Notes: generated by a model from the sequence alone, not told the origin. A DNA stretch of 64,000 nt from Elusimicrobiota bacterium (GCA_003482905.1 DMXM01000036.1:117201-181200); one strand, 5' to 3'. Shown: positions 6,064 to 51,115, numbered from the stretch's first letter. A program made the numbers and translations.

Positions 6064-6372
6064 ATGATCGATCTTAAACCGATTTTCCTCAGGAAAGTTA
6101 AAAATATTCTGGCCGGTAACGTGCCCGAATATGATGTTATGGTCTACGGCTCGCGCGCCGACGGTACGGCCAAGAAATATTCTTATCTGGATATCGCGGT
6201 GATGTCGGATAAACCGCTGGTGGCGACCAGGTTGGAGAAGCTTTCTTCGGAATTTACCGCGGCGGGTTTCCCTTTCCGCGTTGAAACTATCTGCTGGGCC
6301 GCCACCGGCCCCGGCTTCCGCAAAGAGATAAAGAAGACCGGCGTTCTGATACAGAACTCGCCTAAAAAATAG
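6064..6372 (+). CDS. Minimal nucleotidyltransferase (MNT / Pol-beta superfamily) domain protein, copy 1
   Basis: 102 aa. YGSRADGTAKKYSYLDIAV resembles the hG[GS]-x(9-13)-D-h-D-h NTase core, but the first Asp position is Tyr. It is a tandem paralogue of 6380-6688. Confidence 0.7.
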   Translation: MIDLKPIFLRKVKNILAGNVPEYDVMVYGSRADGTAKKYSYLDIAVMSDKPLVATRLEKLSSEFTAAGFPFRVETICWAATGPGFRKEIKKTGVLIQNSPKK

Positions 6373-6379
6373 TCGACTT

Positions 6380-6688
6380 ATGATAGACCTGAAGCCGATC
6401 TTTCTGAAAAAAGTGAAGGCTATACTCGCGTCCAATGTGCCGGAGTTCGACGTGATGGTCTACGGCCACAGGGCCGAAGGCGCGGCCAAGAAATATTCCT
6501 ACCTGGACCTGGCCGTGATGTCGGATAAACCGCTCCCCGCCGCGCGCATGGAAAAGCTCGAGGCCGTCTTCAAGGCCGCGGCTTTCCCTTTCCGCGTTGA
6601 AGTAATCTGCTGGGCCGCCACCGGCCCCGGCTTCCGCAAAGAAATAAAAAAAACCGGCGTCCTCATCCAAACCTCCCCGAAGAAATAA
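6380..6688 (+). CDS. Minimal nucleotidyltransferase (MNT / Pol-beta superfamily) domain protein, copy 2
   Basis: 102 aa, colinear with copy 1 and with most residues identical. The core reads YGHRAEGAAKKYSYLDLAV (Gly-Ser becomes Gly-His). The C-terminal FPFRVE.ICWAATGPGFRKEIKKTGVLIQ is shared with copy 1. Confidence 0.7.
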   Translation: MIDLKPIFLKKVKAILASNVPEFDVMVYGHRAEGAAKKYSYLDLAVMSDKPLPAARMEKLEAVFKAAAFPFRVEVICWAATGPGFRKEIKKTGVLIQTSPKK

Positions 6689-6885: not shown

Positions 6886-8133
6886 ATGGGGGTGAAGGTT
6901 TATTTTAAGACGGTGGGGTGCAGGGTGAACCAGGTGGAGACGGAGAGTCTCCGCGAGAAGTTCGCCGGGCTGGGGCATAGCGATGCGGAGACGCCGGAAG
7001 AGGCGGACCTCGTGGTGGTGAACACCTGCTCCGTTACCGCCAAGGCCGACCGGGACTGCGTGGCCTTTCTTAAGAAAACCGCCGCGGCCAATCCCAGGGC
7101 CGCCATAGCCGTAACCGGGTGCCTGGCTACACTGGAACCCGCGAAGATATTGGCCGCCGCCCCCGGCGCCACGCTGTTCACCAATAAAGAAAAAGAGAAC
7201 ATCCCCGCCGTTTTCTGCGGTAACGCCGCCACCGCCGATTTCTTCTCCGTCAGCAAATCCCACGGCAAATCACGCGCCTTCATAAAAGTACAGGACGGCT
7301 GCAACCTCAAGTGCGCCTACTGCCTGGTAAACCTCGCCAGGAACGAGCTCAGATCCAAGCCGCTGGAAGCCACGGTTTCCGAAGTGAAAAAACTCATAGA
7401 AGCCGGCTTCGCCGAAATAGTCCTGTGCGGCACGCGGCTGGGAATATACCGCTGCAAAGACACCGGCGCCAATCTGGCCGAACTTGTGAAGCGCCTCTTC
7501 GCTCTTGAAGGGAATTTCCGCCTGCGCTTCTCCTCCGTCGAGTCCGAAGAACTGACAATGGAACTCCTCGCCGTGTTAAAAGCCGGCGGCCCCAAGTTCT
7601 GCCATTATTTCCACCTGCCGCTCCAGGCCGGCGCCGATCCCGTGCTTAAGGCCATGGGCCGCCTCTACGATACCGCCCGGTATAAAGCCAAAGTGGAAGA
7701 ACTCCGCGCTATTTTCCCCGGCGTCGGCATATATGCCGACATCATAGCCGGCTACCCCACCGAAACCGAAGAGGATTTAGCTAAAGCCGCCCTCTTCGTC
7801 CGTGACTGCGGCCTCTCCGGTCTGCACGTCTTCAGCTTCTCCGCCCGCCCCGGCACAAAAGCCGCCACCCTCAAGCCGCTCTCCCCTAAAATAGTAGCCG
7901 AGCGCTCAGCCATTCTGCGCGCACTGGACGCCGAGTTGCGCGCCGCTTACGCCGCCTCCATGCTGGGCGGCGAAACAGTGGCCCTCGTCCTAAAAAACAA
8001 AGACGGCCGCGCCCTGGCCCTGGCCTCCAACTTCGTCAACCTGGAGCTGCCCGGGCCGCTCAAGGCCGGCACCCTCGTTAAATGCCGCGTAACCGCCGCC
8101 CGCGCCGGCGCTTGCCTGGCGGAGGTCGTATAA
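6886..8133 (+). CDS. mtaB: Radical-SAM tRNA methylthiotransferase, MtaB-like
   Basis: 415 aa. MTTase N-terminal domain (YFKTVGCRVNQVETES), radical SAM CNLKCAYC cluster motif, and a C-terminal TRAM-like region. The length fits MtaB rather than MiaB or RimO. Confidence 0.75.
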   Translation: MGVKVYFKTVGCRVNQVETESLREKFAGLGHSDAETPEEADLVVVNTCSVTAKADRDCVAFLKKTAAANPRAAIAVTGCLATLEPAKILAAAPGATLFTNKEKENIPAVFCGNAATADFFSVSKSHGKSRAFIKVQDGCNLKCAYCLVNLARNELRSKPLEATVSEVKKLIEAGFAEIVLCGTRLGIYRCKDTGANLAELVKRLFALEGNFRLRFSSVESEELTMELLAVLKAGGPKFCHYFHLPLQAGADPVLKAMGRLYDTARYKAKVEELRAIFPGVGIYADIIAGYPTETEEDLAKAALFVRDCGLSGLHVFSFSARPGTKAATLKPLSPKIVAERSAILRALDAELRAAYAASMLGGETVALVLKNKDGRALALASNFVNLELPGPLKAGTLVKCRVTAARAGACLAEVV

Positions 8134-8672
8134 AAACCTGCCCCTCCTGCGGCTACGGCAACCCTGACGCCAGCCCTAAATGCGGCATATGCGCCCGCGA
8201 CATTTCCACCGTGCCGGTCATAGTAGAGCGCCTTCCGGAAAAAGAATCCCTGGGGCTTATCCTGACCGGCCTGCTGCTGGTGGTTTGCGGCCTCGCTTTC
8301 TTTGTTTCCGGGCGTTTTGCCGATAAGCCGGCCCGGCCGGCCTCCTGGGAGACGGAATTCTCCGACGAAGCCTCCTTTGGATATGAGGGCGTGCTCTATT
8401 CCCTGGATAAAATGGGCCAAATGCGGTTCCTGCCGCGCGAGGCTAAGCGTAAAATAGTTCCGCTGATGTACAGCCCTGACGACAGGGTAGCCTGCGCCGC
8501 GGTAAGGCTGATAGGGGGCTGGCTCCGCTCCGGTGAGGAGCCGGAGGACGAACAATTCTGGCTCGGGATCCTTGCCAAGGCCGCCTCTTCCGGCAGCCCT
8601 GCCGTGCGCCGTCAGGCGGCGCTGGCCGCGGAACCTGGCGGAGCGGGCAAAAAGGGCAAAAAAGCGCGATAA
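8082..8672 (+). CDS. Hypothetical membrane protein: N-terminal zinc ribbon, one TM helix, HEAT-like repeats
   Basis: CPSCGYGNPDASPKCGIC (CxxC-x10-CxxC), TM helix LGLILTGLLLVVCGLAFFVSG, and HEAT-like segments (SPDDRVACAAVRLIG, SGSPAVRRQAALAA). The start is uncertain: the ATG at 8082 overlaps mtaB by 52 nt, and an in-frame TTG at 8112 is an alternative. Confidence 0.5.
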   Translation: MPRNRRPRRRLPGGGRIKTCPSCGYGNPDASPKCGICARDISTVPVIVERLPEKESLGLILTGLLLVVCGLAFFVSGRFADKPARPASWETEFSDEASFGYEGVLYSLDKMGQMRFLPREAKRKIVPLMYSPDDRVACAAVRLIGGWLRSGEEPEDEQFWLGILAKAASSGSPAVRRQAALAAEPGGAGKKGKKAR

Positions 8673-8688
8673 TATACCGCGAACAACT

Positions 8689-8697
8689 TGCTATAAT
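8689..8697 (+). promoter_or_regulatory. Putative extended -10 promoter (TGCTATAAT) for the 8751-14186 gene set
   Basis: TGnTATAAT at 8689-8697 in the AT-rich 78-nt gap upstream of 8751. I see no good -35. The same TGCTATAAT occurs in the strong promoter at 49427-49435. Confidence 0.35.
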
Positions 8698-8750
8698 TAA
8701 AAAGTAAGACGCGTATATATATTAATCAAAAACGGCACGGGGGCGGCCAT

Positions 8751-10571
8751 ATGGACAGAAAAGACGGAAAGAAGAAAGAGTCTATAGACGAAATACTTTC
8801 AGACCTCAACGGTCTCCTCAATAAGATGCCGTCCATACTTGACGGGATAAGAATGCCTGAGATAAAGCCGGTGGAGTTCTCCAAACCCGCGCCGGAGCCG
8901 GAACCGATAAAGAAAAACATGCCCCCGGCGCAGGATGCGGATAAAACCATAATTTTAGAGTCTCTTTCCGGCCTGCCCGAAGGCGCCTCCATGCCCGGGG
9001 AAAAGCACGTCCAGCCGGCGCAGGACGCCGGAGATAAGACCGTTATCCTGGAGGCTTTCTCCTCGCTGCCCGAGGGCGCCGCGGCCCCTGAGGCTGAGAA
9101 GCTTGTCCCGCAAAGCCTCGGAGATTTTATGTTCGGAGAAGGCGCGGCCGAGCCGGCGCCGGAGCCCGCGGTAAATCCCTCCGCCTCCCAAAAAACCGAG
9201 CCCCCCGTCTCCCAATCCGAGCTGCAGCCGGAACAGCCGGAGACGGTACTTCCGCCCTCCGCCACGGACCTGCCCGCGGCCGCGGCGGCGCCGGAAAAAG
9301 CGCCCGAGGAACCGGCCAAGCCGGCGGCCGCTCCGGCGAACGTGCACGCGTTCGAAAGCACCAGGGATTTCGGCATTCCCGACATAGACGCGCTTATGCA
9401 GTTGTCCGAAGGCGACATTCAGGCGCTTGTGGAGCCTGAGCCGCAGCCGGAGCCCGAGCCCGCGCCGGCGCCTCGGCCGGATACGGCGGAACCGTCCGTG
9501 GACGAACTTGCGGAATTTGAAAAGCAAATGAAAGCGGCAGTGCCGCAGGGGGGAACGATCGTGGACATGCCCGAAGAGAAAAAGCCGGAAGCGCAGCCGG
9601 CTCCCGAAGCCGCCCAGGTCCCCGCCGCGGAACCAGAAGCGCCCGAGGCGATTTCGCCTAAAGCGGAGATGGGTTTTGAGGCTTTTACGATAGAACCAGA
9701 GACGCGCCCGGCCACCGAAGCCGCCCAGGCGGGAGAGCCTGAGGGCCTGATAATAGAGCCGTCCGCAAAAGCGGAAGGCGGGGACGGCCTTACCCTTGAC
9801 CTGGAGACACGGCCGGCTACGGAGGCCGCCGGGACGCTGCAGCTGGAGCAGCCGGGAGCTATTGGCGCGGCGCCCCAGGAGCCCGCCCCGGCCGCCGGCG
9901 GCATCGAACTTTCCATAGGCGGCCAGCCTGAAAGCGCGGGGACGCCGGGCACACAGGATTCTTCATCCAAAGCTGAGGAGACACTGCAGGGCATGGCCTT
10001 CGAGCCGGCCAGCGCGGCAATATCCGGAGGGCAGGATAGTTCTTCCACGCCGTTCTCGGGGGATGAAACGCTGGTCGTGCCTCCCCCTTCGGGCGGCTCC
10101 GGCGACGAGGAAAGAACGGTTATTTTCGAGGCCGGCGCGGTCCCGGGGATCGTTTCGGGGGCCCAGGCCGGGGACCTGGTCGTCCTGGCGGAAAAACCCG
10201 CCCCCGAGGGAATCCCGGCCGAACGCCTGCGTTCGCTGGCCTTTCTTTATTCGGCGGAGGACAAAGCCCTTTGCGCCACCGTGCTCGCCGAGCTGGACGC
10301 CATCTGCCTGAAGTCCGCCACCAAACCTATGTTCATAAAACGCGCTTCCGTGCGGGAATGCGCGGCCGATGTGAACGCCAACTATGTCCTGCAGGCCGTC
10401 ACCGACGCCGGCGCGCAGGGCTTGGTCTGCGTGGGGGCCATCCCGCAGGAGAAGATCTACGAGATAGAGAACGCGTTCAGCTCCTCGGGAGGGTTTTTTC
10501 GGCACTATGACTCCGCCTCCTTCAGCCATTCCACGGCGCTGGACCTCGTTTCTGACCTGATACTCCGCTAA
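8751..10571 (+). CDS. Acidic Pro/Glu/Ala-rich low-complexity protein with internal repeats and a folded C-terminal domain
   Basis: 606 aa. Short helical N-terminus (ESIDEILSDLNGLLNKMPSIL), then about 450 aa of PEPA-type low complexity with repeats (PAQDA.DKT[IV]ILE..S.LPEGA twice; ETRPATEAA twice), then a roughly 113-aa alpha/beta-looking C-terminal domain. Confidence 0.7.
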   Translation: MDRKDGKKKESIDEILSDLNGLLNKMPSILDGIRMPEIKPVEFSKPAPEPEPIKKNMPPAQDADKTIILESLSGLPEGASMPGEKHVQPAQDAGDKTVILEAFSSLPEGAAAPEAEKLVPQSLGDFMFGEGAAEPAPEPAVNPSASQKTEPPVSQSELQPEQPETVLPPSATDLPAAAAAPEKAPEEPAKPAAAPANVHAFESTRDFGIPDIDALMQLSEGDIQALVEPEPQPEPEPAPAPRPDTAEPSVDELAEFEKQMKAAVPQGGTIVDMPEEKKPEAQPAPEAAQVPAAEPEAPEAISPKAEMGFEAFTIEPETRPATEAAQAGEPEGLIIEPSAKAEGGDGLTLDLETRPATEAAGTLQLEQPGAIGAAPQEPAPAAGGIELSIGGQPESAGTPGTQDSSSKAEETLQGMAFEPASAAISGGQDSSSTPFSGDETLVVPPPSGGSGDEERTVIFEAGAVPGIVSGAQAGDLVVLAEKPAPEGIPAERLRSLAFLYSAEDKALCATVLAELDAICLKSATKPMFIKRASVRECAADVNANYVLQAVTDAGAQGLVCVGAIPQEKIYEIENAFSSSGGFFRHYDSASFSHSTALDLVSDLILR

Positions 10572-10580
10572 CGGAAAAAT

Positions 10581-12254
10581 ATGATTAAAAAGTGGGAAGT
10601 GGTTCCGGCGCCCAGCGAAAAAAATCAAGGCCGGCATAAACTCCTGATAAAGGGGGATACGAAGGACATTCTGCAGATAGTCAAAAAGCTGGGCGGCCTC
10701 TGTTCCCGCCCTGAAAAGACTACGGGTGAATTTAATTTTGTCATCTATCTGTCCAGACTTGAGAAGGACACGCTGAAGAAGCTTAAGTCCGTGGCCGGTG
10801 AACAAAGCTCTCCGGCCGCGGACGCGGGTTCTTTCGGCGAGGAGCCCCCGCTTTTCGATATCCCCAGGCCCAGGCTCAAGCTGGAGCCCGCTCCGGCGCC
10901 GCAGTCCGCGCCGGCCCCGGTGATCCCGCAAACGGCTTCGCAGGGGGCTAACGTCCCGTCCATTTCCGCGCGCAGAAAGAAGTCGGCGGCCCCGGAGACC
11001 GCCGCCGAGCGGCCCGCCGCCCTGGCTCCGGCGCATCAGGCTTCCATCTCGGCCAGGGCAAAGACCAAGTGGTCCATGGAGCTGCCGCTTATCCCGACCT
11101 ACAGTTTCCAGACGCTGATCTCGGGCTCGCACAACCGCTTCGCGCACGCGGCCGCCATGGCCGTGGTGGAGAACCCGGGGGTGATCTATAACCCGCTGCT
11201 GCTCTTCGGCGCGCCGGGCACCGGCAAGACTCATTTTATCAACGCCATCTCCTATGGGCTTTCCGCCTCCATAGGACAGAACAATATTTTCGTTACCGAC
11301 GGGATAAAGCTTTCCAGGGGTATTGAAATAGTCTGTAAAGAGGGGGGGATGGCCCGGCTCGAGGAGATCTTCGCCAAGGTGAAGGTGCTTATAATCGACG
11401 ACGTGCATCTCCTGGCGGTCTCCGAAACCAACAAGAAATACATCTCGAAGTGGCTTAACGACTTTGTGGCGCAGAACAAGCAGATAGTGGTAACTTCGGT
11501 TTTTCCTCCTAAATCCCTGGCGGGGCTGGAGGAAGCGGCCGGCTTCCAGTTCTCGCAGGGCTGGATGGTGGACCTTAAGATGCCCGGCGCCCAGGCTTAC
11601 AAGTCCATAATGACGCAGATCCTGCAGGGCCTGGACGTGAAGCTTTCGGAAGATGAGATCACCTCTATTTTCGCCAGCGGTACGATGTCGTTCGGGGACG
11701 CCGAACGTACGCTGGGGGACATGAAGAAGCTGGAGAAGTTCCTCGTCAGCTCCCGCAACAGTCTCTCGCACCTGCAACTGCTGGACACGCTCATCGGCTT
11801 CGGCGAGACGCCGGTGCCGGGAGCCCTCAGCGACCAGGACGTACAGCAGGCCTCCGCCTGGACGCCGTCGCAGAAGGACACCTGGTTCAAATGGGGCATT
11901 TTCTACCCCAGGGGGATGAAGCGCGAGGCTGACTTCGCCCTTTATTCCCTGCATGAGCGCGCCAGGGAGCTGGGCCTGAATACCGAATGGAGCCAGGTCT
12001 TCGCCGAGGAGTACAACTCCGACGAACTTTACGGCGTGCCGTTCAGGGTGGGGAATTACGCCAGCGAGAGGAACGTGAACGGGGTCATAGTGCTGGGACC
12101 GCAGCCGACTTCCTCCCTGGGCGCGCAGGAGGCGGAGTTCCGCCATATTGTTTTCAAGATACTGGACAGTTTTCTGATAAAGGGCGCGTGGCTCCCGCAG
12201 GGGAAATTTAAGTCGAAAGCCGCCTACGCTAAAATCCTTATGGACCTGGTGTAA
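10581..12254 (+). CDS. DnaA-domain-III (AAA+) paralogue lacking the DnaA DNA-binding domain
   Basis: Residues about 168-405 align colinearly with DnaA domain III: PTYSFQTLISGSHNRFAHAAAMAVVENPGVIYNPLLLFGAPGTGKTHFINAI (Walker A), VLIIDDVHLL (Walker B) and QIVVTSVFPP (sensor I). I recognise no domain IV HTH. The N-terminal (about 165 aa) and C-terminal (about 122 aa) regions are unrelated to DnaA. Confidence 0.8.
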   Translation: MIKKWEVVPAPSEKNQGRHKLLIKGDTKDILQIVKKLGGLCSRPEKTTGEFNFVIYLSRLEKDTLKKLKSVAGEQSSPAADAGSFGEEPPLFDIPRPRLKLEPAPAPQSAPAPVIPQTASQGANVPSISARRKKSAAPETAAERPAALAPAHQASISARAKTKWSMELPLIPTYSFQTLISGSHNRFAHAAAMAVVENPGVIYNPLLLFGAPGTGKTHFINAISYGLSASIGQNNIFVTDGIKLSRGIEIVCKEGGMARLEEIFAKVKVLIIDDVHLLAVSETNKKYISKWLNDFVAQNKQIVVTSVFPPKSLAGLEEAAGFQFSQGWMVDLKMPGAQAYKSIMTQILQGLDVKLSEDEITSIFASGTMSFGDAERTLGDMKKLEKFLVSSRNSLSHLQLLDTLIGFGETPVPGALSDQDVQQASAWTPSQKDTWFKWGIFYPRGMKREADFALYSLHERARELGLNTEWSQVFAEEYNSDELYGVPFRVGNYASERNVNGVIVLGPQPTSSLGAQEAEFRHIVFKILDSFLIKGAWLPQGKFKSKAAYAKILMDLV

Positions 12255-12257
12255 TGA

Positions 12258-14186
12258 ATGGTTAACGAACTTATAGGGGCCGGCGTTCTGGGCGCGACCG
12301 GGGCTTTCGGGGCCTTTTGGTACCTGAAATTCCGGGAAGTCCTGCCGATTGAGGCCCGCCTGCTGGCCGCGCAGAAAGGCTTCTCCGACTTTACGTCCTT
12401 CACCAGGGAAACGATGGAGCGCGCTTACGCCCCGGAGCAGCCGGAACATTACGGGGACATCACCAACTACTACCTGATAAAACTGCACAAGGTATTCCCG
12501 GACAGTTCCATGCTGCTTTTTGAGAAAGGCCCCGGCCAGTGGAAGCTGGTGAACTATCTTAAACATTTCAAAGTGGAGCCCAAGCTCCTGACCGCTTACA
12601 AGTGGAGCGCTTTCGACCGCAGTTCCTCGGAAGGGGACCTGCTGCGTTTCGACGACGTAAGGGCAGGCGACTACCAGGGCGTGGAGGAGCTGTTCTCCGT
12701 TTTCGACATCAAGTCCGCGCTGATGTGCCCTTTCAGGCCGGCCGGCGGCGCCGCCGAGCGGCTGATAGTTTTCGGCGCCAATCAGCCCTCTTCCTTTGAC
12801 GCGGCACAGCCCTATCTGCGTTTCGTGGCCTCCCAGCTTTCCTCCATTTCCAAGGTCTCGGACAAGGTCTTCGCGCTTAAAAAAGAGACCGACAGCCTCA
12901 AGAGCGAGGTCAGCGCGGTGGTAAAAGAACTGGATGTGGCAGGTTCGCGCCTGATACAGCGCGCCCGCGAGCGGAAGGCGCTTTACGAGGTGGTAACGCA
13001 GGTTACCGGCCCCGGGGGCGACACCCAGAACGGCTGCTCGGCCATCCTCAATATAGTGGCCAAAATGGTGGAGGCCGACGTGGTGGCCTGCCTGCTTTTC
13101 GACGAGGCGAAAGGCGAACTGGTGGTGAGCCCCGGATCCTACGGCATCCCGGACGCCGAGCGCATGCTTTACAGCATCCCGGTCAGCAACCACGCCTCGG
13201 CTTCCGTGCGAACTTTTCTCAGCCGCAAACCGTTCATTACGGCGGACGCGCAGAACGATCCCGACGTGCTGACCCGCTACGCCAAGCTCTGGGAGATCCA
13301 TTCGCTGATGATCGTGCCCATCTCCCTGCACGACCGCATTATCGGCGTCATGCGCGTGGGCAGCCGCCGCCAGGATTTCTTCACACCGGACCAGCTGGAA
13401 TTCCTCACCATCATAGCCGACGAACTGGCCATCATCATAGAGATGGTGACGCTCTACGAGAACCTCTCCAAGACCGCGCAGGAACTGGCGCAGCTCAACA
13501 AGCTCAAAGACGAGTTCCTTTCCACCGTCAGCCACGAGCTGAAAACCCCGCTCACCACCATAAAGGGTTTCGTGTCGGTGATCCTCAGCGGCGAGGTGGG
13601 GCCTCTTAACGAACAGCAGCTGAATTTCCTCACCGTGACGGACCAGTCCGTGAACCGCCTTACTCATTTGATCTCCAACCTCCTCGACCTCTCCCGCCTC
13701 AACGGCAAGGTGGAGATGGAATTCCAGCGGGTCGACCTGGTGGAGCTCGTGCGCATGTCCGTTTCCACTATGCTGCTTAAGGCCAGGGAGAAGAACATTT
13801 TACTGTCGAGCACCATGGTCAAAGGCCTCCCCAGCGTGCAGGCCGATACCCGCTGGATAGGGCAGGTCGTAGACAATCTGCTTATAAATGCCATCAAATA
13901 CTCCGGTGACGGCGCGAAAGTGTGCGTTAGCGGCACGGATAAAGGGGAGGCCGTAGTCATCTGCGTGGAGGACAACGGGCCGGGCATACCGGCCGAAGAG
14001 CAAAAGATGGTCTTTGATAAATTTTACCGGGGCAAGGCCAGCGCCAACCAGGTGCCGGGCACCGGCCTGGGCCTGGCCATTTCCAAATCGGTCGTGGAGA
14101 AACACGGCGGGAAGATCTGGGTGGAATCGAAGCCGGGGAAAGGTTCCAGGTTCTGTTTCGCCCTGCCGATAGCCAAGACTAAATAG
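12258..14186 (+). CDS. Sensor histidine kinase with N-terminal TM helix and tandem GAF-like domains
   Basis: 642 aa. HisKA H-box [19 protein letters not shown] and HATPase_c motifs ([27 protein letters not shown]). The upstream region is GAF-like ([22 protein letters not shown]). Confidence 0.9.
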
Positions 14187-14210: not shown

Positions 14211-15308
14211 ATGAAACTAAAACTCACTTTTTTGGCCGCCGCGCTGCTGCTGGGCGCCTGCGCCCATGCCCCGGCCCCTGGTTCGGTCAAGGCCGCTCCT
14301 GAGCCTCTTGAGGCCGACGGCGCCTGCGCCTTGAACTCCCGTGACCTGGCGGCTTCGCGCGCTTGCGCCGTGCGGGACGCGGAGCGGGGCGCGGTGAGCC
14401 GCGTCGCCGGCCTCTACCTGGACGAGGCCGTCCGGGCCGAAAGGTCCGCGGTCCTTGAAAGCAATCTGCTCAATAATCCGCATCTTTACGTGGCCAGGTA
14501 TAAAACCCTCTCCGACGGCCCCGACGGCGGATACTACCGGGTGCGCATTAAGGCCTGGATCTACCACGGACGGATCGCCTCCGAGCTGCGCGCCCTTAAC
14601 CTGGCCGGGCCGTCGGCCGCCGCCCCGCGCGCCGCGTTCGTGCAGCGCGGCGAGGCCGCCCCGGTCTTTGCCGCCGCTTTCCGTGAAGCTTTTATAAAGC
14701 GGTCGGCCGTGAGTATCGAAGAGTTTCCTTTCGCTTCCGCCCCGGCTTTAGCGGCGGGGGACCAGACCGCTTTGCTGGACGCCGCGGCCGCCTCCGGGGC
14801 TGACCTGCTGATCGCCGTTTCCGCCTCGGTTTCCGCTGTCGGCGCCGGGGTCAGCACCGGTTTTTACCCTTCCAGGGCCGACGCTTCCGTAAAAGTCTAC
14901 GACGCGCCCTCGGGCAAGATAATCCTGGACTTGGCCAGCCAGGCCAACGGCATAGATTCCACCGAGGCCGGTTCGTTCTCGAAGGCGCTGGCCGCGGCCG
15001 GGGAACTCCTGGCGCAGGAAACGGCTGCCCGCGCCGGGCGCCTCCTTAAGCCGGATGCCGCGTTGAAACTGAAAGTTTACGGCCTGGAAGGCCTTGAGAT
15101 ACTTGAAAAACTGAAAGCCCAGTTGTTGAAGCTTGAGGTGAACGACCTGCGGCTGGAGAGTTACTCCGCGGGAACGGCCGTGTTCCAGGCGGCGCCGGAA
15201 CGCCCGGACCCGCAGGAGTTCGCCAGCGCCGTGCTGCGCGTGGACTCGCTGGGGCTGGAGCTGGAGGGGGCGGGGGGCCAGGAAGTGGCTTTTTCCCTCC
15301 CCCGGTAA
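14211..15308 (+). CDS. Lipoprotein with an LPP20/FlgT-N-like domain
   Basis: Signal peptide plus lipobox (LLLGAC). The N-terminal region (ACALNSRDLAASRACAVRDAERGAVSRVAGLYL...YYRVRIKAWIY) resembles LPP20/FlgT_N-type lipoproteins. First gene of a three-lipoprotein cluster. Confidence 0.55.
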   Translation: MKLKLTFLAAALLLGACAHAPAPGSVKAAPEPLEADGACALNSRDLAASRACAVRDAERGAVSRVAGLYLDEAVRAERSAVLESNLLNNPHLYVARYKTLSDGPDGGYYRVRIKAWIYHGRIASELRALNLAGPSAAAPRAAFVQRGEAAPVFAAAFREAFIKRSAVSIEEFPFASAPALAAGDQTALLDAAAASGADLLIAVSASVSAVGAGVSTGFYPSRADASVKVYDAPSGKIILDLASQANGIDSTEAGSFSKALAAAGELLAQETAARAGRLLKPDAALKLKVYGLEGLEILEKLKAQLLKLEVNDLRLESYSAGTAVFQAAPERPDPQEFASAVLRVDSLGLELEGAGGQEVAFSLPR

Positions 15309-15310
15309 GC

Positions 15311-15922
15311 ATGCGCCCGCCACTTTACGCGCACGCTTTTTTGCTGGCGGCGGCCTGTGCCTGCTCCGGAAAAACCGCGTACCTGGTTTCCCCGGCGCTG
15401 CGCACTGCGGCCGACACGCGCGTGGCGGTGTTGCCTTTTGACAACCAGAGCACCGATATCGGGGCCCCGGACGTGATGCGTAAACTCGCCGAGGACGGCT
15501 TAGGCAAGCGGGGCTACGCGCCGCTGCCCGCCAAGGAGGTAGATGCCAGGCTTTCCTCCCTGGGAGTTTCCGAGGGAGGTCAGTTGCCGGGTGTTAAACC
15601 GGGGGCGCTGGGCGGCGCGCTGGGAGTGGACCTGCTGGTCTACGGGGACGTGGAGGATTTTACTTTTCAGAATCTCGGGTTCCTGATACGCAAATCTGTT
15701 GCGCTGCGCGTAAAGATCGTCTCGGCCTCCACGGGGGAAACCCTTTACGAGGGCTCGGGCTCCGGCAGGGACGTAAAGGTGTTCTTCGACAAGGACCAGG
15801 CAAAGGCCGCTTTTGTGGAGCAGATGGCGGTGAAACTGGTGCAGAATATATTAAAGACGCCGCTTAAGAAGGAAGCCGAGACGGCGGCCAGGAAGGCGCT
15901 GGACAGCCTTCCCCGACGGTGA
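15311..15922 (+). CDS. DUF799/GNA1162-like lipoprotein
   Basis: 203 aa, Cys-containing signal sequence (LLAAACACSG), and the pattern VAVLPFDNQS...DLLVYGDVEDF...VALRVKIVSASTGETLY typical of DUF799 / LpoB-like lipoproteins. Separated from the upstream gene by 2 nt. Confidence 0.6.
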   Translation: MRPPLYAHAFLLAAACACSGKTAYLVSPALRTAADTRVAVLPFDNQSTDIGAPDVMRKLAEDGLGKRGYAPLPAKEVDARLSSLGVSEGGQLPGVKPGALGGALGVDLLVYGDVEDFTFQNLGFLIRKSVALRVKIVSASTGETLYEGSGSGRDVKVFFDKDQAKAAFVEQMAVKLVQNILKTPLKKEAETAARKALDSLPRR

Positions 15923-15957: not shown

Positions 15958-16893
15958 ATGAAAAAGATAAAACTTTTAGCCGCGGCCGCGCTGTTCGCCG
16001 GGGCCTGCGCGCCTTCCAAAACCGTAAAGACCCAGCAGGCCGTCAGCGTGGACAAGACCGAAAAGGTCGAGTCTAAGTACACCGGACCGAAGCGCCGCAT
16101 AGGCGTGGTGGAGTTCGAGAACAAATCCGCATACGGCCAGGGCCGCCTGGGCGGCGCAGCTTCCGATATACTGGTGACCGAACTTGTTAAATCCGGCAAG
16201 TTCATCGTGGTAGAGCGCGACCGCCTCGCCAAGATAATGGAAGAGCAGAAATTCCAGTCCCAGGGAATGGCCGACCCGGCTACCGTGGCCAGGATCGGCC
16301 AGGTAATGGGCCTGGAGGCTATAGTGGTGGGTTCCGTCTCCCAGTTCGGCGTCAAAAAGGAGGGGTCCGACTACCTGCTGACCCAGTCCAAGCGCCAGGT
16401 GGCCGACGTCACCGTGGACATAAGGCTGGTGGACGTGCAGAGCGGCCAGGTGATACTGGCGGATTCCGGCAAGGGTATGGCAAAGTCGACCAAGGCTTCT
16501 TTCCTGGGTATGGGCACCAAGGGCGGCTATGACGAAACGCTCGAGGGCGAGGCCCTGCGCGCTTCGCTGGTGCAGTTCGTCACCAATATCGCCAGCCAGT
16601 TGAACAAGAAACCCTGGTCGTGCATGATAGCCGCCGCCGCGCGGGAACAGCTTTATCTGAACGCCGGGCAGGACTCCGGTGTGACCGAAGGCATGAAACT
16701 GGACTGCTACCGCCAGGGGGACGCTATACGCGACCCGCGCTCCAACCTGGTGATAGGCCACGTGGAGGACTACCTGGGCCGCGCCGAAGTGACCGGCCCC
16801 TGCGGTGATTCCGGCGACTGCGCCAAGGCGCAGTTCACAAAGTCCGCCGGCGGCTCGGCCAAGGCCGGGGATATCTGCCGCCTGGCGAAATAG
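15958..16893 (+). CDS. CsgG-family lipoprotein (curli-transport-channel-like) with a C-terminal beta-rich extension
   Basis: Lipobox LFAGAC. CsgG-type core RIGVVEFENKSAYGQGRLGGAASDILVTELVKSGKFIVVERDRLAKIMEEQKFQ...AIVVGSVSQFG. The extra roughly 90-aa C-terminal domain reads LYLNAGQDSGVTEGMKL...GDICRL. Confidence 0.8.
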   Translation: MKKIKLLAAAALFAGACAPSKTVKTQQAVSVDKTEKVESKYTGPKRRIGVVEFENKSAYGQGRLGGAASDILVTELVKSGKFIVVERDRLAKIMEEQKFQSQGMADPATVARIGQVMGLEAIVVGSVSQFGVKKEGSDYLLTQSKRQVADVTVDIRLVDVQSGQVILADSGKGMAKSTKASFLGMGTKGGYDETLEGEALRASLVQFVTNIASQLNKKPWSCMIAAAAREQLYLNAGQDSGVTEGMKLDCYRQGDAIRDPRSNLVIGHVEDYLGRAEVTGPCGDSGDCAKAQFTKSAGGSAKAGDICRLAK

Positions 16894-16917: not shown

Positions 16918-18453
16918 ATGTTATCCAAGTTGCGCACATTATGTCTTAAAGGCATAGACGGCAGGGAGGTAAGCGCCGAGGTCTACATTGCCCCGGGCCT
17001 GCCCGCCTATACCGTGGTGGGCCTGCCAGACGCCGCCGTAAAAGAGGCGAAGGACCGGGTGGTGGCCGCCGTGCGCAATTCCGGCTACGAGTTCCCCTCA
17101 AAACGTATAACCGTCAACCTGGCCCCGGCGGAGATAAAAAAGTCCGGCACGCATTTCGACCTGCCCATAGCCCTGGGCGTGCTGGCCGCCTCCGGCAAGC
17201 TCGGAAAGAAGCCTCCGGCGCGCATGGAAGATACATTCTTCATAGGAGAACTTGCATTGGACGGCGCCGTACGGCCGGTGGCGGGAGTTCTCCCCATGCT
17301 GCTGGCGCTGAAGGGTTCCGGGAAAACTGCCGTCGTTCCGGTCGGAAATTCCGCGGAGGCCGCCGTTTCCGGCGTAGCCTGCCTGGCCGCCTCCTCCCTA
17401 AAAGAAGCCGCTGCCTGGCTTGCCGGCGCCGGGGAACTGAACCCCTGCGCCCCGGCCCCTGAACATAAGCCATCCCCATTCCAGGCGCCGGACCTTTGCG
17501 AGGTGAAGGGACAGGTCTTCGCCAAGCGGGCACTGGAAATAGCCGCGGCCGGTTTTCACAACGTTATTATGGTGGGGCCGCCCGGCGCCGGCAAGAGCAT
17601 GCTGGCCCGCCGCTTCGGCGCGCTGCTCCCGCCGATGACCTTCGACGAGTCCCTGGAGACTACCAAGCTCTATTCCGTCAGCGGGCAGGGCGCGGCCGGG
17701 CGCCTTGTGAGCGAGCGGCCTTTCAGGGAACCGCACCATACAATTTCCGACGCCGCGCTTATAGGGGGCGGCTCCAGCCCCAGGCCGGGAGAAGTTTCCC
17801 TGGCGCACAACGGCGTACTTTTCCTGGACGAATTTCCGGAATTCTCCCGCCCGGCCATAGAGGCCCTGCGCGAGCCGCTGGAGGTCTGGAAAGTCACGGT
17901 TTCCAGGGTAAAGGAGAGCGTGGCCTACCCTGCGCGTTTCCTGATGGTCGCCGCCATGAACCCTTGCCCCTGCGGTTATCTCGGCCACCCCACCCGGGAG
18001 TGCGCCTGTACGCCGCTGCAGGTACACAAGTATCGCGCCAAGATTTCCGGCCCCATCCTGGACCGTATAGACCTGCATGTGCAGCTGTCGGCCGTTAAAT
18101 ATGCCGACTGGGAGGCTCTGCCGAAAGGGGAACCGACGGCGGACATAGCGGGGCGGGTGATGAAGGCTATAGAGATACAGCGGCAGAGATTTAAAGGGGA
18201 AACGCGCGCCAACGCATTTATGGCCGGCGCCGAGCTGCGCAGGCATTGCGTGCTGCCGGAGGGGGCCTCGGCCGTGCTTGAGACGGCCATGAACAAACTG
18301 GGCTTCTCCGCCCGCTCCCTGGATAAAATACTTAAGGTCTCAAGGACCATAGCGGACCTGGAGGGCCAGTCCGACATAAAGCGGGAGCACGTGATTGAGG
18401 CGGTGCAGTACAGGATGCTGGACAAGGCCGCGGAACTGCCGGCTGGGATCTGA
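16918..18453 (+). CDS. comM: YifB/ComM family Mg-chelatase-like AAA+ ATPase
   Basis: 511 aa. N-terminal Lon-protease-like domain, Walker A GPPGAGKSMLA, GVLFLDEFPEF, and C-terminal ChlI-like region. Confidence 0.9.
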   Translation: MLSKLRTLCLKGIDGREVSAEVYIAPGLPAYTVVGLPDAAVKEAKDRVVAAVRNSGYEFPSKRITVNLAPAEIKKSGTHFDLPIALGVLAASGKLGKKPPARMEDTFFIGELALDGAVRPVAGVLPMLLALKGSGKTAVVPVGNSAEAAVSGVACLAASSLKEAAAWLAGAGELNPCAPAPEHKPSPFQAPDLCEVKGQVFAKRALEIAAAGFHNVIMVGPPGAGKSMLARRFGALLPPMTFDESLETTKLYSVSGQGAAGRLVSERPFREPHHTISDAALIGGGSSPRPGEVSLAHNGVLFLDEFPEFSRPAIEALREPLEVWKVTVSRVKESVAYPARFLMVAAMNPCPCGYLGHPTRECACTPLQVHKYRAKISGPILDRIDLHVQLSAVKYADWEALPKGEPTADIAGRVMKAIEIQRQRFKGETRANAFMAGAELRRHCVLPEGASAVLETAMNKLGFSARSLDKILKVSRTIADLEGQSDIKREHVIEAVQYRMLDKAAELPAGI

Positions 18454-30935: not shown

Positions 30936-31307
30936 CTAAGGGCGGAGCCGCCTTTTAATTATTTTTTGCAGGATGTCCAGGTTTATCGGCTTTGTGATAT
31001 AGTCAAAGGCGCCGAATTCCAGGCATTCGCGCGCAACTTCCTCGTCCTCGTTGCCGGTGATCATTATAAACCCGGTCCCCGGCATTTCCGGCGCCAGCTC
31101 CTTGAGCACCGAAACGCCGTCCCTCTCGGGCATGTAAATATCCAGCAGGATGATGGCGGGCCTGGCCGCGCGGGCAAGCTCAAGCGTGGCCGCGCCGTCG
31201 GCCGCCTCCAGGATCTTCCGATCGGGCGCCGCCAGGGAACGCCGCAGAACGGCGCGGATCTCCGGGTCGTCGTCGGCGATAAGGATCCCGGCCGGATTCA
31301 CCGTCAT
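30936..31307 (-). CDS. Stand-alone response regulator receiver (CheY-like)
   Basis: 123 aa. ILIADDD, the phospho-acceptor context ILLDIYMPERDG, ITG and KP. No output domain. It starts 2 nt after the nrfA stop. Confidence 0.85.
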   Translation of the reverse strand: MTVNPAGILIADDDPEIRAVLRRSLAAPDRKILEAADGAATLELARAARPAIILLDIYMPERDGVSVLKELAPEMPGTGFIMITGNEDEEVARECLEFGAFDYITKPINLDILQKIIKRRLRP

Positions 31308-38206: not shown

Positions 38207-38590
38207 ATGTCCAAAGTAATGGTAGTTGACGACGAAAAAGACGTGGTGTACCTGATAAAGGTGCTCATGGAGCGGGAGAAGCTGGAGGTTCTGGAGGCTT
38301 ACAACGGCCTAGAGGCCTATAATAAACTCACCTCCAAGGAGCCAGGCAGGGTCATCCCGGACGCCATAATACTGGACATAATGATGCCGGAAATGGACGG
38401 CTACACCTTTCAGGCCAAGCTGCAGGAAATAGACGAGCTCTGCGACATCCCGATAGTTATCCTGACCGCCAAAGGGCAGATGAAGGACCTGTTCGAGCTT
38501 TCCTCCAATATTTTCGCTTTCGTGGAAAAGCCCTTCGAGCCCAAGAACCTCGTAAAAATTGTTAAGGACGCGATCGCCTCAAAAAAATGA
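38207..38590 (+). CDS. Stand-alone response regulator receiver (CheY-like)
   Basis: 127 aa. VMVVDDE, ILDIMMPEMDG, ILTAKG and KPF. No output domain. Overlaps the lysS start by 4 nt. Confidence 0.85.
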   Translation: MSKVMVVDDEKDVVYLIKVLMEREKLEVLEAYNGLEAYNKLTSKEPGRVIPDAIILDIMMPEMDGYTFQAKLQEIDELCDIPIVILTAKGQMKDLFELSSNIFAFVEKPFEPKNLVKIVKDAIASKK

Positions 38591-49421: not shown

Positions 49422-49435
49422 GCGCCTGCTATAAT
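49407..49435 (+). promoter_or_regulatory. Consensus sigma70 promoter with extended -10
   Basis: Exact TTGACA (49407-49412), 17-nt spacer, TGC-TATAAT (49427-49435). It overlaps the last codons and stop of the OMP gene. Confidence 0.55.
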
Positions 49436-49624: not shown

Positions 49625-51115
49625 ATGGGAAAGTTCGTGGAATGCGTGCCTAATTTCAGCGAGGGAAAGGATTTAGCCAAGATCAACGCCATAGTGGACG
49701 CCGCCAGGTCGGTACCGGGAGTGCTGGTGCTGGACGTGGAGAAAGACGCGGACCACAACCGCACCGTACTCACGTTCATAGCCCCGCTGGAGACAGCCGC
49801 GGACGCCATGTTCGCCGTTACGAAGAAAGCCGCCCAGCTCATAGACCTTAACCACCACAAAGGGGAGCATCCCCGCATGGGCGCCACCGACGTGGCCCCT
49901 TTCATCCCCATAATGGATTCCACCATAGAGGAGTGCGTGAAGCTGGCGGAGGCCGCCGGCGAGCGCATAGGCCGGGAACTCAATATTCCTGTATATCTTT
50001 ACGACAGGGCCGCCCGCAGCGAGAACCGCCGCGACCTGGCCAAGGTGCGCAAGGGACAGTTCGAGGGGCTGCGTTCGGAGATCGGCAAAAGCCCCGAGCG
50101 CGTGCCCGACTTCGGGCCGAACCGGATCCATCCCACCGCGGGGGCCATGGCCGTGGGCGCCCGCAACCAGATCGTCAATTTCAACGTTAATCTGGCCACC
50201 ACCGACATGGAATTCGCCAAGGGCCTGGCTAAAAAGATCCGCACCTCCGGCGGCGGCCTGCCGGCCCTGCGCGCCAAGGAGATCTTCCTGGAGTCCAAAG
50301 GCCAGGTGCAGATGTCCACCGTGCTTACAGATTATAGGACCACCTCCATAAAGCGCGTGATGGACGAACTGGCCAAAGAACTGGCCCCTAAAAATATCTC
50401 CATTACCGGCACCGAGCTTATCGGCCTCACCACGCAGGACGCCATAACGGACTACGCCGTAGAGGCGCTGCAGGTTAAGGATTTTAAAAAAGACGAGCAG
50501 GTGCTGGAGACCAAGCTGCTGAAGCTGCTCAGTTCCTGGCAGGCGGGCGCCAATCTGTTCGTGGACGCGCTAGCTAATACCGACCCCACGCCCGGCGGCG
50601 GGTCCGCCGCGGCGGTGAACGGCGCCATGGGCTGCGCGCTGGGGCAGATGGCGCTCGGGATAAGCCTCAGGAGCAAGAAACTCGACGAGGCCAAAAAACC
50701 GGCCATGCGCGAGCTGGCCGAACGCCTGGCCTCGCACAAGGTGGCCCTGCAGAACTGCGTGGCCGAGGATTCCGCCTCTTTCGACGGTTTCATGGAGGCG
50801 ATGAAGATCCCGAAGGACAACCCCGAGCGCAAGGTGAAGATGCAGGCCGCGCTTAAGCACGCCGCCGAGGTGCCCCTGAAAACGGCGCGTCTTTCCTCGG
50901 AGGCCCTGGCTGGGCTTACCGTCTGCGTCACTTCGATCTCCCCGCAGGTGGTGTCCGACTACCGCAGCGCCCGCTACCAGCTGGAGGCGGCCATACGCTG
51001 CGCCGCCGAGAACGTTTTTATAAACGCCGAAGGCCTGGAAGACCGGGCCTACGCCGAAAAGATAACCGCCGAAGTGAAGGGCTGGCTGGCCTCCGGCGCC
51101 GCGGCAAAAATATAA
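49625..51115 (+). CDS. ftcD: Bifunctional glutamate formimidoyltransferase / formimidoyl-THF cyclodeaminase (fused FtcD)
   Basis: 496 aa. The N-terminus FVECVPNFSEGKD is diagnostic of the formiminotransferase domain. The C-terminal roughly 190 aa form a helical cyclodeaminase-like domain (PTPGGGSAAAVNGAMGCAL). Confidence 0.9.
   Translation: MGKFVECVPNFSEGKDLAKINAIVDAARSVPGVLVLDVEKDADHNRTVLTFIAPLETAADAMFAVTKKAAQLIDLNHHKGEHPRMGATDVAPFIPIMDSTIEECVKLAEAAGERIGRELNIPVYLYDRAARSENRRDLAKVRKGQFEGLRSEIGKSPERVPDFGPNRIHPTAGAMAVGARNQIVNFNVNLATTDMEFAKGLAKKIRTSGGGLPALRAKEIFLESKGQVQMSTVLTDYRTTSIKRVMDELAKELAPKNISITGTELIGLTTQDAITDYAVEALQVKDFKKDEQVLETKLLKLLSSWQAGANLFVDALANTDPTPGGGSAAAVNGAMGCALGQMALGISLRSKKLDEAKKPAMRELAERLASHKVALQNCVAEDSASFDGFMEAMKIPKDNPERKVKMQAALKHAAEVPLKTARLSSEALAGLTVCVTSISPQVVSDYRSARYQLEAAIRCAAENVFINAEGLEDRAYAEKITAEVKGWLASGAAAKI

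Follow-up and report, generated by a model that had tools for sequence, protein, structure and literature searches.

ATPases of the DnaA clade are known to bind origins, load helicases, inactivate DnaA or assist transposition. Here we describe a conserved set of genes that combines an ATPase of this clade with a disordered protein and a sensor kinase. The set lies in a 64,000-nucleotide (nt) stretch of DNA from an Elusimicrobiota bacterium (GCA_003482905.1, DMXM01000036.1:117201-181200; the whole stretch is called the window below) and consists of three adjacent genes, g2, g3 and g4, encoding a long acidic disordered protein, a DnaA-derived AAA+ protein and a sensor histidine kinase. A first-pass annotation of the window, made from the sequence alone, had grouped these genes with the preceding gene, g1, and had named no described system of such composition. 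Our searches agree with it on the latter point: no match in Pfam, NCBIfam, PADLOC or the PDB assigns a function to the module, no description of it was found in a full-text search of the searchable literature, and no profile, structure or literature match leads to a characterized pathway. The module adds a new architectural variant to the DnaA AAA+ clade, in a gene set that is conserved across the Elusimicrobiota and has no described counterpart. A phylum-wide g3, tied to a disordered partner and a sensor kinase, would put the initiator ATPase module to a new use.

Each of the three proteins resembles a known system in part. The g3 protein has the AAA+ domain III fold and motifs of DnaA, and its small N-terminal domain, variable linker and ATPase follow one another as domains I, II and III of DnaA do. 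It departs from DnaA in carrying a Rossmann-like alpha/beta domain where domain IV has a helix-turn-helix, in having glutamine at the arginine-finger position of box VII, and in an N-terminal domain with the element order b-b-a-b-a and no DnaA_N match; its scores against the DnaA, Hda and IS21 helper models fall far below the NCBIfam cutoffs. At 557 amino acids (aa) it is much longer than Hda (about 230 aa), and its N terminus, MIKKWEV..., as read from the sequence, does not carry a clamp-binding motif of the QL[SP]LPL type. Unlike IstB/IS21 genes, g3 has no transposase in its neighborhood, and unlike genes of the initiator clade it shares its locus with genes for a kinase and a disordered protein. 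The g2 protein shares with PopZ and HubP/FimV a short N-terminal helix, an acidic Pro-rich disordered spacer, a folded C terminus and an adjacent ATPase gene. However, it has no sequence or profile similarity to PopZ or FimV (Pfam, permissive E values) and no LysM domain or transmembrane segment, and its C-terminal domain is alpha/beta and homologous to that of g3, whereas those of PopZ and FimV are helical. The g4 protein, finally, is similar to the C-terminal half of KdpD, to DosS/DosT and to CikA in its GAF-HisKA-HATPase_c order, intact catalytic boxes and cytoplasmic-side sensing, but differs in a single N-terminal anchor and hardly any periplasmic part, a first "GAF" that is weakly detectable, the lack of an adjacent response regulator and translational coupling to an AAA+ gene.

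Organization of the locus

The labels g1 to g4 denote four consecutive open reading frames (ORFs) on the + strand of the window.

8082-8672, + strand: g1, 196 aa; Zn-ribbon (CPSCG...CGIC), one transmembrane helix and a HEAT-like tail; peripheral, not core
8654-8722, + strand: promoter block, containing the extended -10 TGCTATAAT at 8689-8697
8751-10571, + strand: g2, 606 aa; acidic, disordered, scaffold-like protein
10581-12254, + strand: g3, 557 aa; DnaA-derived AAA+ protein
12258-14186, + strand: g4, 642 aa; sensor histidine kinase

These ORFs, the single reading frame of the last three, the spacers of 9 nt (g2-g3) and 3 nt (g3-g4) and the extended -10 are all exactly where the first-pass annotation had placed them. 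The -10 sequence lies within the 78-nt AT-rich spacer between g1 and g2. It occurs twice in the window, against a chance expectation of 0.22, and 48 of 65 loci have the exact 9-mer in front of g2. In an anchored alignment about 60 nt are conserved, with the consensus AACAACT-TGCTATAAT-TAAAAAGTAA-n-GCGCGTATATAT. The last codons of g1 (RKQLAIIKK-stop) fall inside this block in many relatives (positions 7785-7810 of locus L001, and 18 other loci); the g1 copies of the window and of L005 end upstream of the block, which is still conserved. Since conservation is just as high where g1 is missing or truncated, the constraint on the block is regulatory and not coding. Across loci the g2-g3 and g3-g4 junctions have median gaps of 6 and 3 nt, with many overlaps of 4 nt; as relatives often have such overlaps, the shared frame of the three genes in the window carries no special meaning.

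Judged by this arrangement, g2, g3 and g4 are one operon. Their co-transcription from the extended -10, previously thought probable, is supported by the phylogenetically conserved promoter block together with the tiny or overlapping junctions. No convincing terminator was found between g4 and the downstream lipoprotein, comM, LysM and dprA genes, where the gaps are 2-35 nt, and the transcript may extend past position 14186 into the lipoprotein, comM and dprA genes. At gathering thresholds, Rfam detects no RNA element in the window.

The core of the module comprises three genes and not the four originally proposed. Homologues of g1 are found only in closer relatives, where the start of g1 overlaps the stop of mtaB by 4 nt, and we place it outside the core. 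Its description as a Zn-ribbon/transmembrane/HEAT protein stands in part: the CxxC...CxxC motif and a single transmembrane segment (residues 54-81) are clear, but the Pfam matches to Zn ribbons (E = 0.03-0.04) and HEAT_2 (E = 0.007) are below the cutoffs. The g1 protein of the window has 196 aa versus about 310 aa in relatives, the C-terminal 120 aa or so being gone, likewise in the nearest relative.

Two further observations concern the window. The second exact copy of TGCTATAAT, at 49427-49435 (+ strand), precedes an FtcD/FchA-like gene (49625-51115) by about 190 nt and may serve this genome as a further strong extended -10 promoter. An antisense ORF of 1,234 aa (9963-13667, - strand) covers the 3' end of g2, the whole of g3 and half of g4. 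It owes its existence to the single frame and tiny spacers of the three + strand genes; as the + strand genes have strong family matches and hundreds of homologues, it is a mirror artifact, which could fool a gene caller.

Conservation across the Elusimicrobiota

One genome was scanned for each GTDB species, and the 79 loci obtained are all from Elusimicrobiota or from metagenome-assembled genomes (MAGs) classified no further than "bacterium"; one is in a MAG assigned to Elusimicrobium minutum (L060). Homologues of g3 that carry an organism name all belong to Elusimicrobia/Elusimicrobiota. In a synteny set of 87 Elusimicrobiota loci, g2, g3 and g4 are adjacent and co-oriented in about 70, with identities of 27-90%. 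By BLASTP, g2 directly precedes g3 in 71 loci, and profiles add five more (L076, L083 and L085-L087); g4 is immediately downstream of g3 in 69, with exceptions that are mostly contig ends. Unrelated neighbors around the ATPase gene in related genomes had been named as the outcome that would speak against a module; we found instead that its neighbors are strongly conserved.

The flanks of the trio differ between lineages. In the group to which the window belongs, hrcA-grpE-dnaK-dnaJ-rsmE-mtaB lies upstream of the trio; in other lineages the flank is a microcompartment/DeoC locus with pilT; and in the MAG assigned to E. minutum the trio is flanked on both sides by aminotransferase genes. If the cultured strain of that species has the trio, the hypotheses considered below are open to experiment. 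The g2 gene is absent from loci L079-L082, where the kinase is also without its N-terminal region. This joint loss is a weak hint, from a single lineage, that g2 and the N-terminal region of the kinase interact. As g3 is kept in loci that have lost g2 or the kinase, its gene is the hub of the module.

The AAA+ protein g3

Four regions can be delimited in g3.

10581-10808, + strand: N-domain, residues 1-76; conserved in a 30-homologue alignment
residues 77-165, + strand: Pro-rich linker of variable length
11076-11870, + strand: AAA+ domain plus lid, residues 166-430
11871-12251, + strand: Rossmann-like C-domain, residues 431-557

Residues 172-330 match PF00308 (Bac_DnaA) with an E value of 4.9e-29. 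Among NCBIfam models, g3 scores 131.5 bits against DnaA (TIGR00362; cutoff, 343.9; E = 4e-38), 38.3 bits against the IS21 helper/IstB model (cutoff, 200; E = 1e-9) and 27.7 bits against Hda (TIGR03420; cutoff, 194.8; E = 1.7e-6). The best PDB matches in both sequence and fold are to DnaA domain III, which dominated the Foldseek search with whole g3 and gave TM scores of about 0.75-0.79 for isolated domain III structures. Signature motifs of DnaA, such as GSHNRFAHAAA and YNPL, are kept, and the Walker A (G210, G213, G215, K216 and H218) and Walker B (D273/D274) residues are invariant in the 30 homologues. In box VII, LEEAAGFQF of g3 aligns with LEDRLRSRF of Bacillus subtilis DnaA, the second arginine of which is the DnaA arginine finger (R285 in Escherichia coli); the corresponding residue of g3 is Gln323, nearly invariant among the same homologues.

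The AlphaFold2 model of g3 consists of an N-domain with the order b-b-a-b-a, a disordered stretch (78-187), an AAA+ fold and a C-domain with the order b-a-b-a-b-a-b-a (436-556) and a predicted local distance difference test (pLDDT) score around 90. Residues 431-557 have no Pfam match to DnaA domain IV at E values up to 10, and Pfam searches with the isolated N- and C-domains, with the same limit, gave nothing useful. The Pfam scans contain no DNA-binding or clamp-binding motif in g3, and the calculated charge of the C-domain is near neutral. The description of g3 as a DnaA-type ATPase without its DNA-binding domain is thus borne out by the PF00308 match and the lack of a domain IV match, and our comparisons show that the nucleotide-binding site has been kept while the arginine finger and the DNA-binding domain have been lost. 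Canonical dnaA is present in the phylum, with a reported pseudogene in Endomicrobium trichonymphae (PMC5174739). Since canonical dnaA is known there, g3 would be a paralogue and not the initiator itself.

Several homologues of g3 (e.g., P0004, P0021, P0255 and P0350) are named "chromosomal replication initiator protein (DnaA)" by the Joint Genome Institute (JGI). As these proteins have no domain IV and no arginine finger, the label is probably a systematic misannotation in Elusimicrobiota MAGs, and it can mislead the assignment of dnaA and oriC when MAGs are oriented.

Versions of g3 with 900-2568 aa occur in some relatives (889-5559 of L084; P0259, P0264, P0279 and P0335). In P0259, P0264 and P0279 a low-complexity linker of 400-1100 aa, acidic overall, separates the N-domain from the ATPase. 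The g3 of L084 has 1,556 aa with a giant acidic linker, and this locus has neither g2 nor the kinase. A reading of the giant-linker forms as g2-g3 fusions was not supported, the g2 N-terminal motif giving one marginal match only (E = 0.11).

The acidic protein g2

The g2 protein consists of two conserved ends and a variable middle.

about 8775-8858, + strand: N-terminal helix motif ESIDEILSDLNGLLNKMP, conserved
between N-terminal motif and C-domain: low-complexity spacer of variable length
10209-10568, + strand: C-terminal alpha/beta domain, residues about 487-606; folded in the AlphaFold2 model

Proline, glutamate and alanine make up 39% of the 606 residues and the net charge is -61, in keeping with the earlier description of a Pro/Glu/Ala-rich acidic protein. 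No family match was found in Pfam or NCBIfam with the full-length protein, or in Pfam with the N-terminal 60 aa and the C-terminal 150 aa at permissive E values. We collected 119 homologues, and all those with an organism name are from Elusimicrobia; the full-length query was required, as the C terminus alone recovered only nine fragments. The homologues range from 216 to 824 aa, and the composition of the spacer varies among Pro/Glu/Ala-rich, Glu/Lys/Asn-rich and Ala/Glu/Lys/Gln-rich forms. Conservation across the phylum is confined to the N-terminal motif, a few short linear motifs and the C-domain. The N-terminal motif reads ESIDEILSDLNGLLNKMP in the window, EEILNDLNSILEKMP in E. minutum-like genomes and DIRNILSDLDGILS in others. 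Homology of the N-terminal helix of g2 to the N-domain of g3 was considered and rejected (hhalign, 0.2%).

The C-terminal domains of g2 and g3

The first-pass annotation had proposed that g2 and g3 share a C-terminal domain, and both profile-profile comparison and predicted folds agree with this. With profiles of 152 g2 and 277 g3 domain sequences, hhalign aligned the two C-domains with a probability of 92.8% (E = 3.9e-7; 116 columns), while controls with the same settings, namely four pairs of unrelated domains and each C-domain against the N-terminal region of the kinase, gave 0.1-0.7%. The AlphaFold2 models (pLDDT 84.6 for the g2 domain, again with the topology b-a-b-a-b-a-b-a) have an identical order of secondary-structure elements and nearly equal lengths. 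The similarity is visible only with diverse profiles: BLASTP finds none between g2 and g3, early hhalign comparisons with narrow alignments reached 55%, and local hmmsearch cross-matches were not significant. Taking the profile and fold evidence together, we consider the two C-domains homologous, and it is plausible that g2 arose as a partial tandem duplicate of the g3 3' end. The presence of the same domain in the N-terminal region of the kinase was rejected (hhalign, 0.2-0.7%).

A search of 1.84 billion representative proteins with the g3 C-domain profile yielded 141 clusters, in which the domain is always C-terminal. The proteins are about 190 to 2568 aa long, short fragments set aside; all 10 that were scanned carry Bac_DnaA or are fragments of Bac_DnaA proteins, and the looked-up clusters with an organism name are all from Elusimicrobiota. 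The predicted fold is a generic four-stranded Rossmann-like sandwich. Foldseek found no PDB match for the C-domain at an E value of 1e-3; the closest neighbors of the g2 domain were Argonaute/PIWI MID domains (E = 4e-3 to 6e-2; TM, 0.55-0.65), the best at TM 0.56/0.65 and E 4e-3. They share with it a four-stranded parallel alpha/beta sandwich, but identity is 10-15% and other flavodoxin-like or Rossmann-like folds score similarly. Rossmann-like folds usually bind a ligand or partner at the C-terminal strand ends and the loops after them. The invariant residues of the C-domain (YP.G, EEY..DE.YG.PF and GPQPTS.LG.QE) map to these positions in the models, and this cluster is a possible ligand- or partner-binding site.

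The histidine kinase g4

The g4 protein has the following parts.

residues about 4-24: N-terminal hydrophobic anchor, conserved, followed by YWYLKF
residues 28-205: weakly GAF-like region
between this region and the GAF domain: coiled coil
residues 260-395: GAF (Pfam, E = 1e-16)
residues 417-482: HisKA, with H426 (Pfam, E = 1e-18)
residues 530-639: HATPase_c (Pfam, E = 9e-32)

The catalytic set is intact (H426, N539, G1 at 572, F at 586 and G2 at 601), and NCBIfam gives generic kinase-core matches only, all below the cutoffs. In the earlier picture of a membrane-anchored kinase with two GAF domains, the anchor, the kinase core and the second GAF domain hold, but the first is only weakly supported: residues 28-205 have no Pfam match and a weak hhalign similarity to GAF (40%; E = 3e-4). 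The statement that no response regulator adjoins the kinase is correct for the window, in which receiver ORFs occur only at 30936-31307 and 38207-38590. About 15 relatives carry a gene for a 140-aa stand-alone receiver on the minus strand between rsmE and mtaB, approximately 2.5 kb upstream of g2 and 4-6 kb upstream of the g3 start. In the window, the gap between rsmE and mtaB is filled by two tandem 102-aa paralogues (6064-6372 and 6380-6688, + strand), with weak, below-cutoff matches to MntA-type nucleotidyltransferase antitoxins.

Possible functions of the module

Our results are best explained, tentatively, by an Elusimicrobiota-specific complex of g2, g3 and g4 that acts as an ATP-gated scaffold and kinase signaling hub at the membrane. 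In this model g3, as a DnaA-descended switch between nucleotide states, would be the hub, as suggested by the facultative presence of the kinase in some lineages; it would bind ATP but would probably be neither an origin binder nor a processive ATPase, since a protein without the arginine finger cannot act as a classical oligomeric ATPase. Through the homology of their C-domains, g2 and g3 would either pair by these domains or dock on the same partner, and this pairing or docking would tether the acidic disordered spacer and the conserved N-terminal helix to the g3 switch. The anchored kinase might read the state of assembly through its cytoplasmic N-terminal and GAF regions and pass the signal to a response regulator encoded elsewhere. 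Our data show how the operon and its proteins are built, that g3 has lost the arginine finger and domain IV, that the two C-domains are homologous and that the genes are linked throughout the phylum; we infer the formation of the complex, the switch behavior, the direction of signaling and the process that is controlled. The first-pass annotation had speculated on a switch in assembly or localization that depends on ATP and is controlled by the kinase, which is a plausible possibility. Several points weigh against this model. No cognate response regulator is linked to g4 in the window. Loci L070 and L071, from gut Elusimicrobium, and also L084 and L085 have kept g3 without the kinase, so that signaling through g4 cannot be the whole function. 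To our knowledge, every characterized member of the DnaA/DnaC/Hda/IstB/Orc clade has DNA or replication proteins as its target, which favors a role in replication. Moreover, slow genome rearrangement can partly explain long-range synteny within one phylum.

The leading alternative, which we regard as unlikely, is that g3 regulates the initiation of replication by co-assembling with genuine DnaA through its DnaA-like domain III. In this case g3 would be able to accept but not donate an arginine finger and would therefore cap or poison DnaA filaments or report the status of DnaA or replication to the kinase, and g2 would serve as an acidic DNA mimic or a tether. The ATPase of g3 is much closer to DnaA than to Hda, IstB or DnaC, its top fold matches are all DnaA domain III, and the arginine finger has been lost specifically from a protein that has kept its signature motifs and ATP site; comM, dprA and topA, which lie downstream of the module in most lineages, and the presence of canonical dnaA in the phylum also fit this explanation. 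However, linkage to the origin was looked for and rejected, the window containing no DnaA-box cluster and no turn in GC skew, and the absence of DNA- or clamp-binding motifs in the Pfam scans and the near-neutral C-domain also count against a replication role. A related proposal strikes us as distinctly improbable: that g3 represents a new class of DnaA paralogues, with a ligand- or partner-binding Rossmann-like domain in exchange for the DNA-binding one and with no arginine finger, which, together with a partly duplicated g2, couples the state of the initiator or chromosome to a histidine-kinase phosphorelay. If true, it would constitute a phylum-specific link between replication and signaling without a described counterpart.

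A still less probable explanation is that the module organizes or regulates type IV pili and DNA uptake, with g2 as an acidic hub of the FimV/HubP/PopZ kind that positions ATPases and with the kinase controlling pilus or competence genes. In divergent lineages, a gene for a PilT/PilU-family ATPase (TIGR01420; 426 bits, above the cutoff) lies directly upstream of g2, its stop overlapping the g2 start by 4 nt in two of the following.

L086, 4613-5695: PilT/PilU-family gene
L087, 4729-5817: PilT/PilU-family gene
L085, 4651-5721: PilT/PilU-family gene

The downstream comM and dprA genes, accompanied in several lineages by a gene for a LysM protein, and the hub-like architecture of g2, with its N-terminal helix, acidic disordered spacer and folded C-domain, point the same way. 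The pilT adjacency, though, is limited to one lineage group and is absent from the window, and g2, having no Pfam match, leaves the PopZ and FimV families unmatched in that scan. The N-terminal motif of g2 may resemble the N terminus of PopZ. Against a pilus or uptake role we also count that dprA and topA stand together in many phyla, as an old housekeeping arrangement.

It is very unlikely that the genes are mere neighbors in a slowly rearranging region, with an ordinary orphan sensor kinase beside an unrelated g2/g3 pair: the kinase is missing from some g3-bearing loci and many relatives share a long collinear block that runs from hrcA to topA, but the trio is intact where both flanks differ, start and stop codons overlap at its junctions, g2 and g3 have a homologous domain in common, and a conserved dedicated promoter precedes g2. 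A role in anti-phage defense was also considered and rejected, as PADLOC matches only P-loop stretches of 25-30 residues or weak AAA similarity and the housekeeping context is conserved.

Genes downstream of the module

Four genes follow g4 in the window.

14211-15308, + strand: lipoprotein "lipoA", 365 aa, no family
15311-15922, + strand: GNA1162-like lipoprotein (Pfam/NCBIfam)
15958-16893, + strand: CsgG/LpoB-like lipoprotein (Pfam/NCBIfam)
16918-18453, + strand: comM/yifB (Pfam/NCBIfam)

These genes, with intergenic gaps of 2-35 nt, travel with the module and are treated here as its neighbors. The envelope lipoprotein set is found downstream of g3 or g4 even where the upstream context differs (L085-L087 and L004), a cytoplasmic g3 being accompanied there by periplasmic lipoproteins, and other lineages add a small lipoprotein of about 150 aa.

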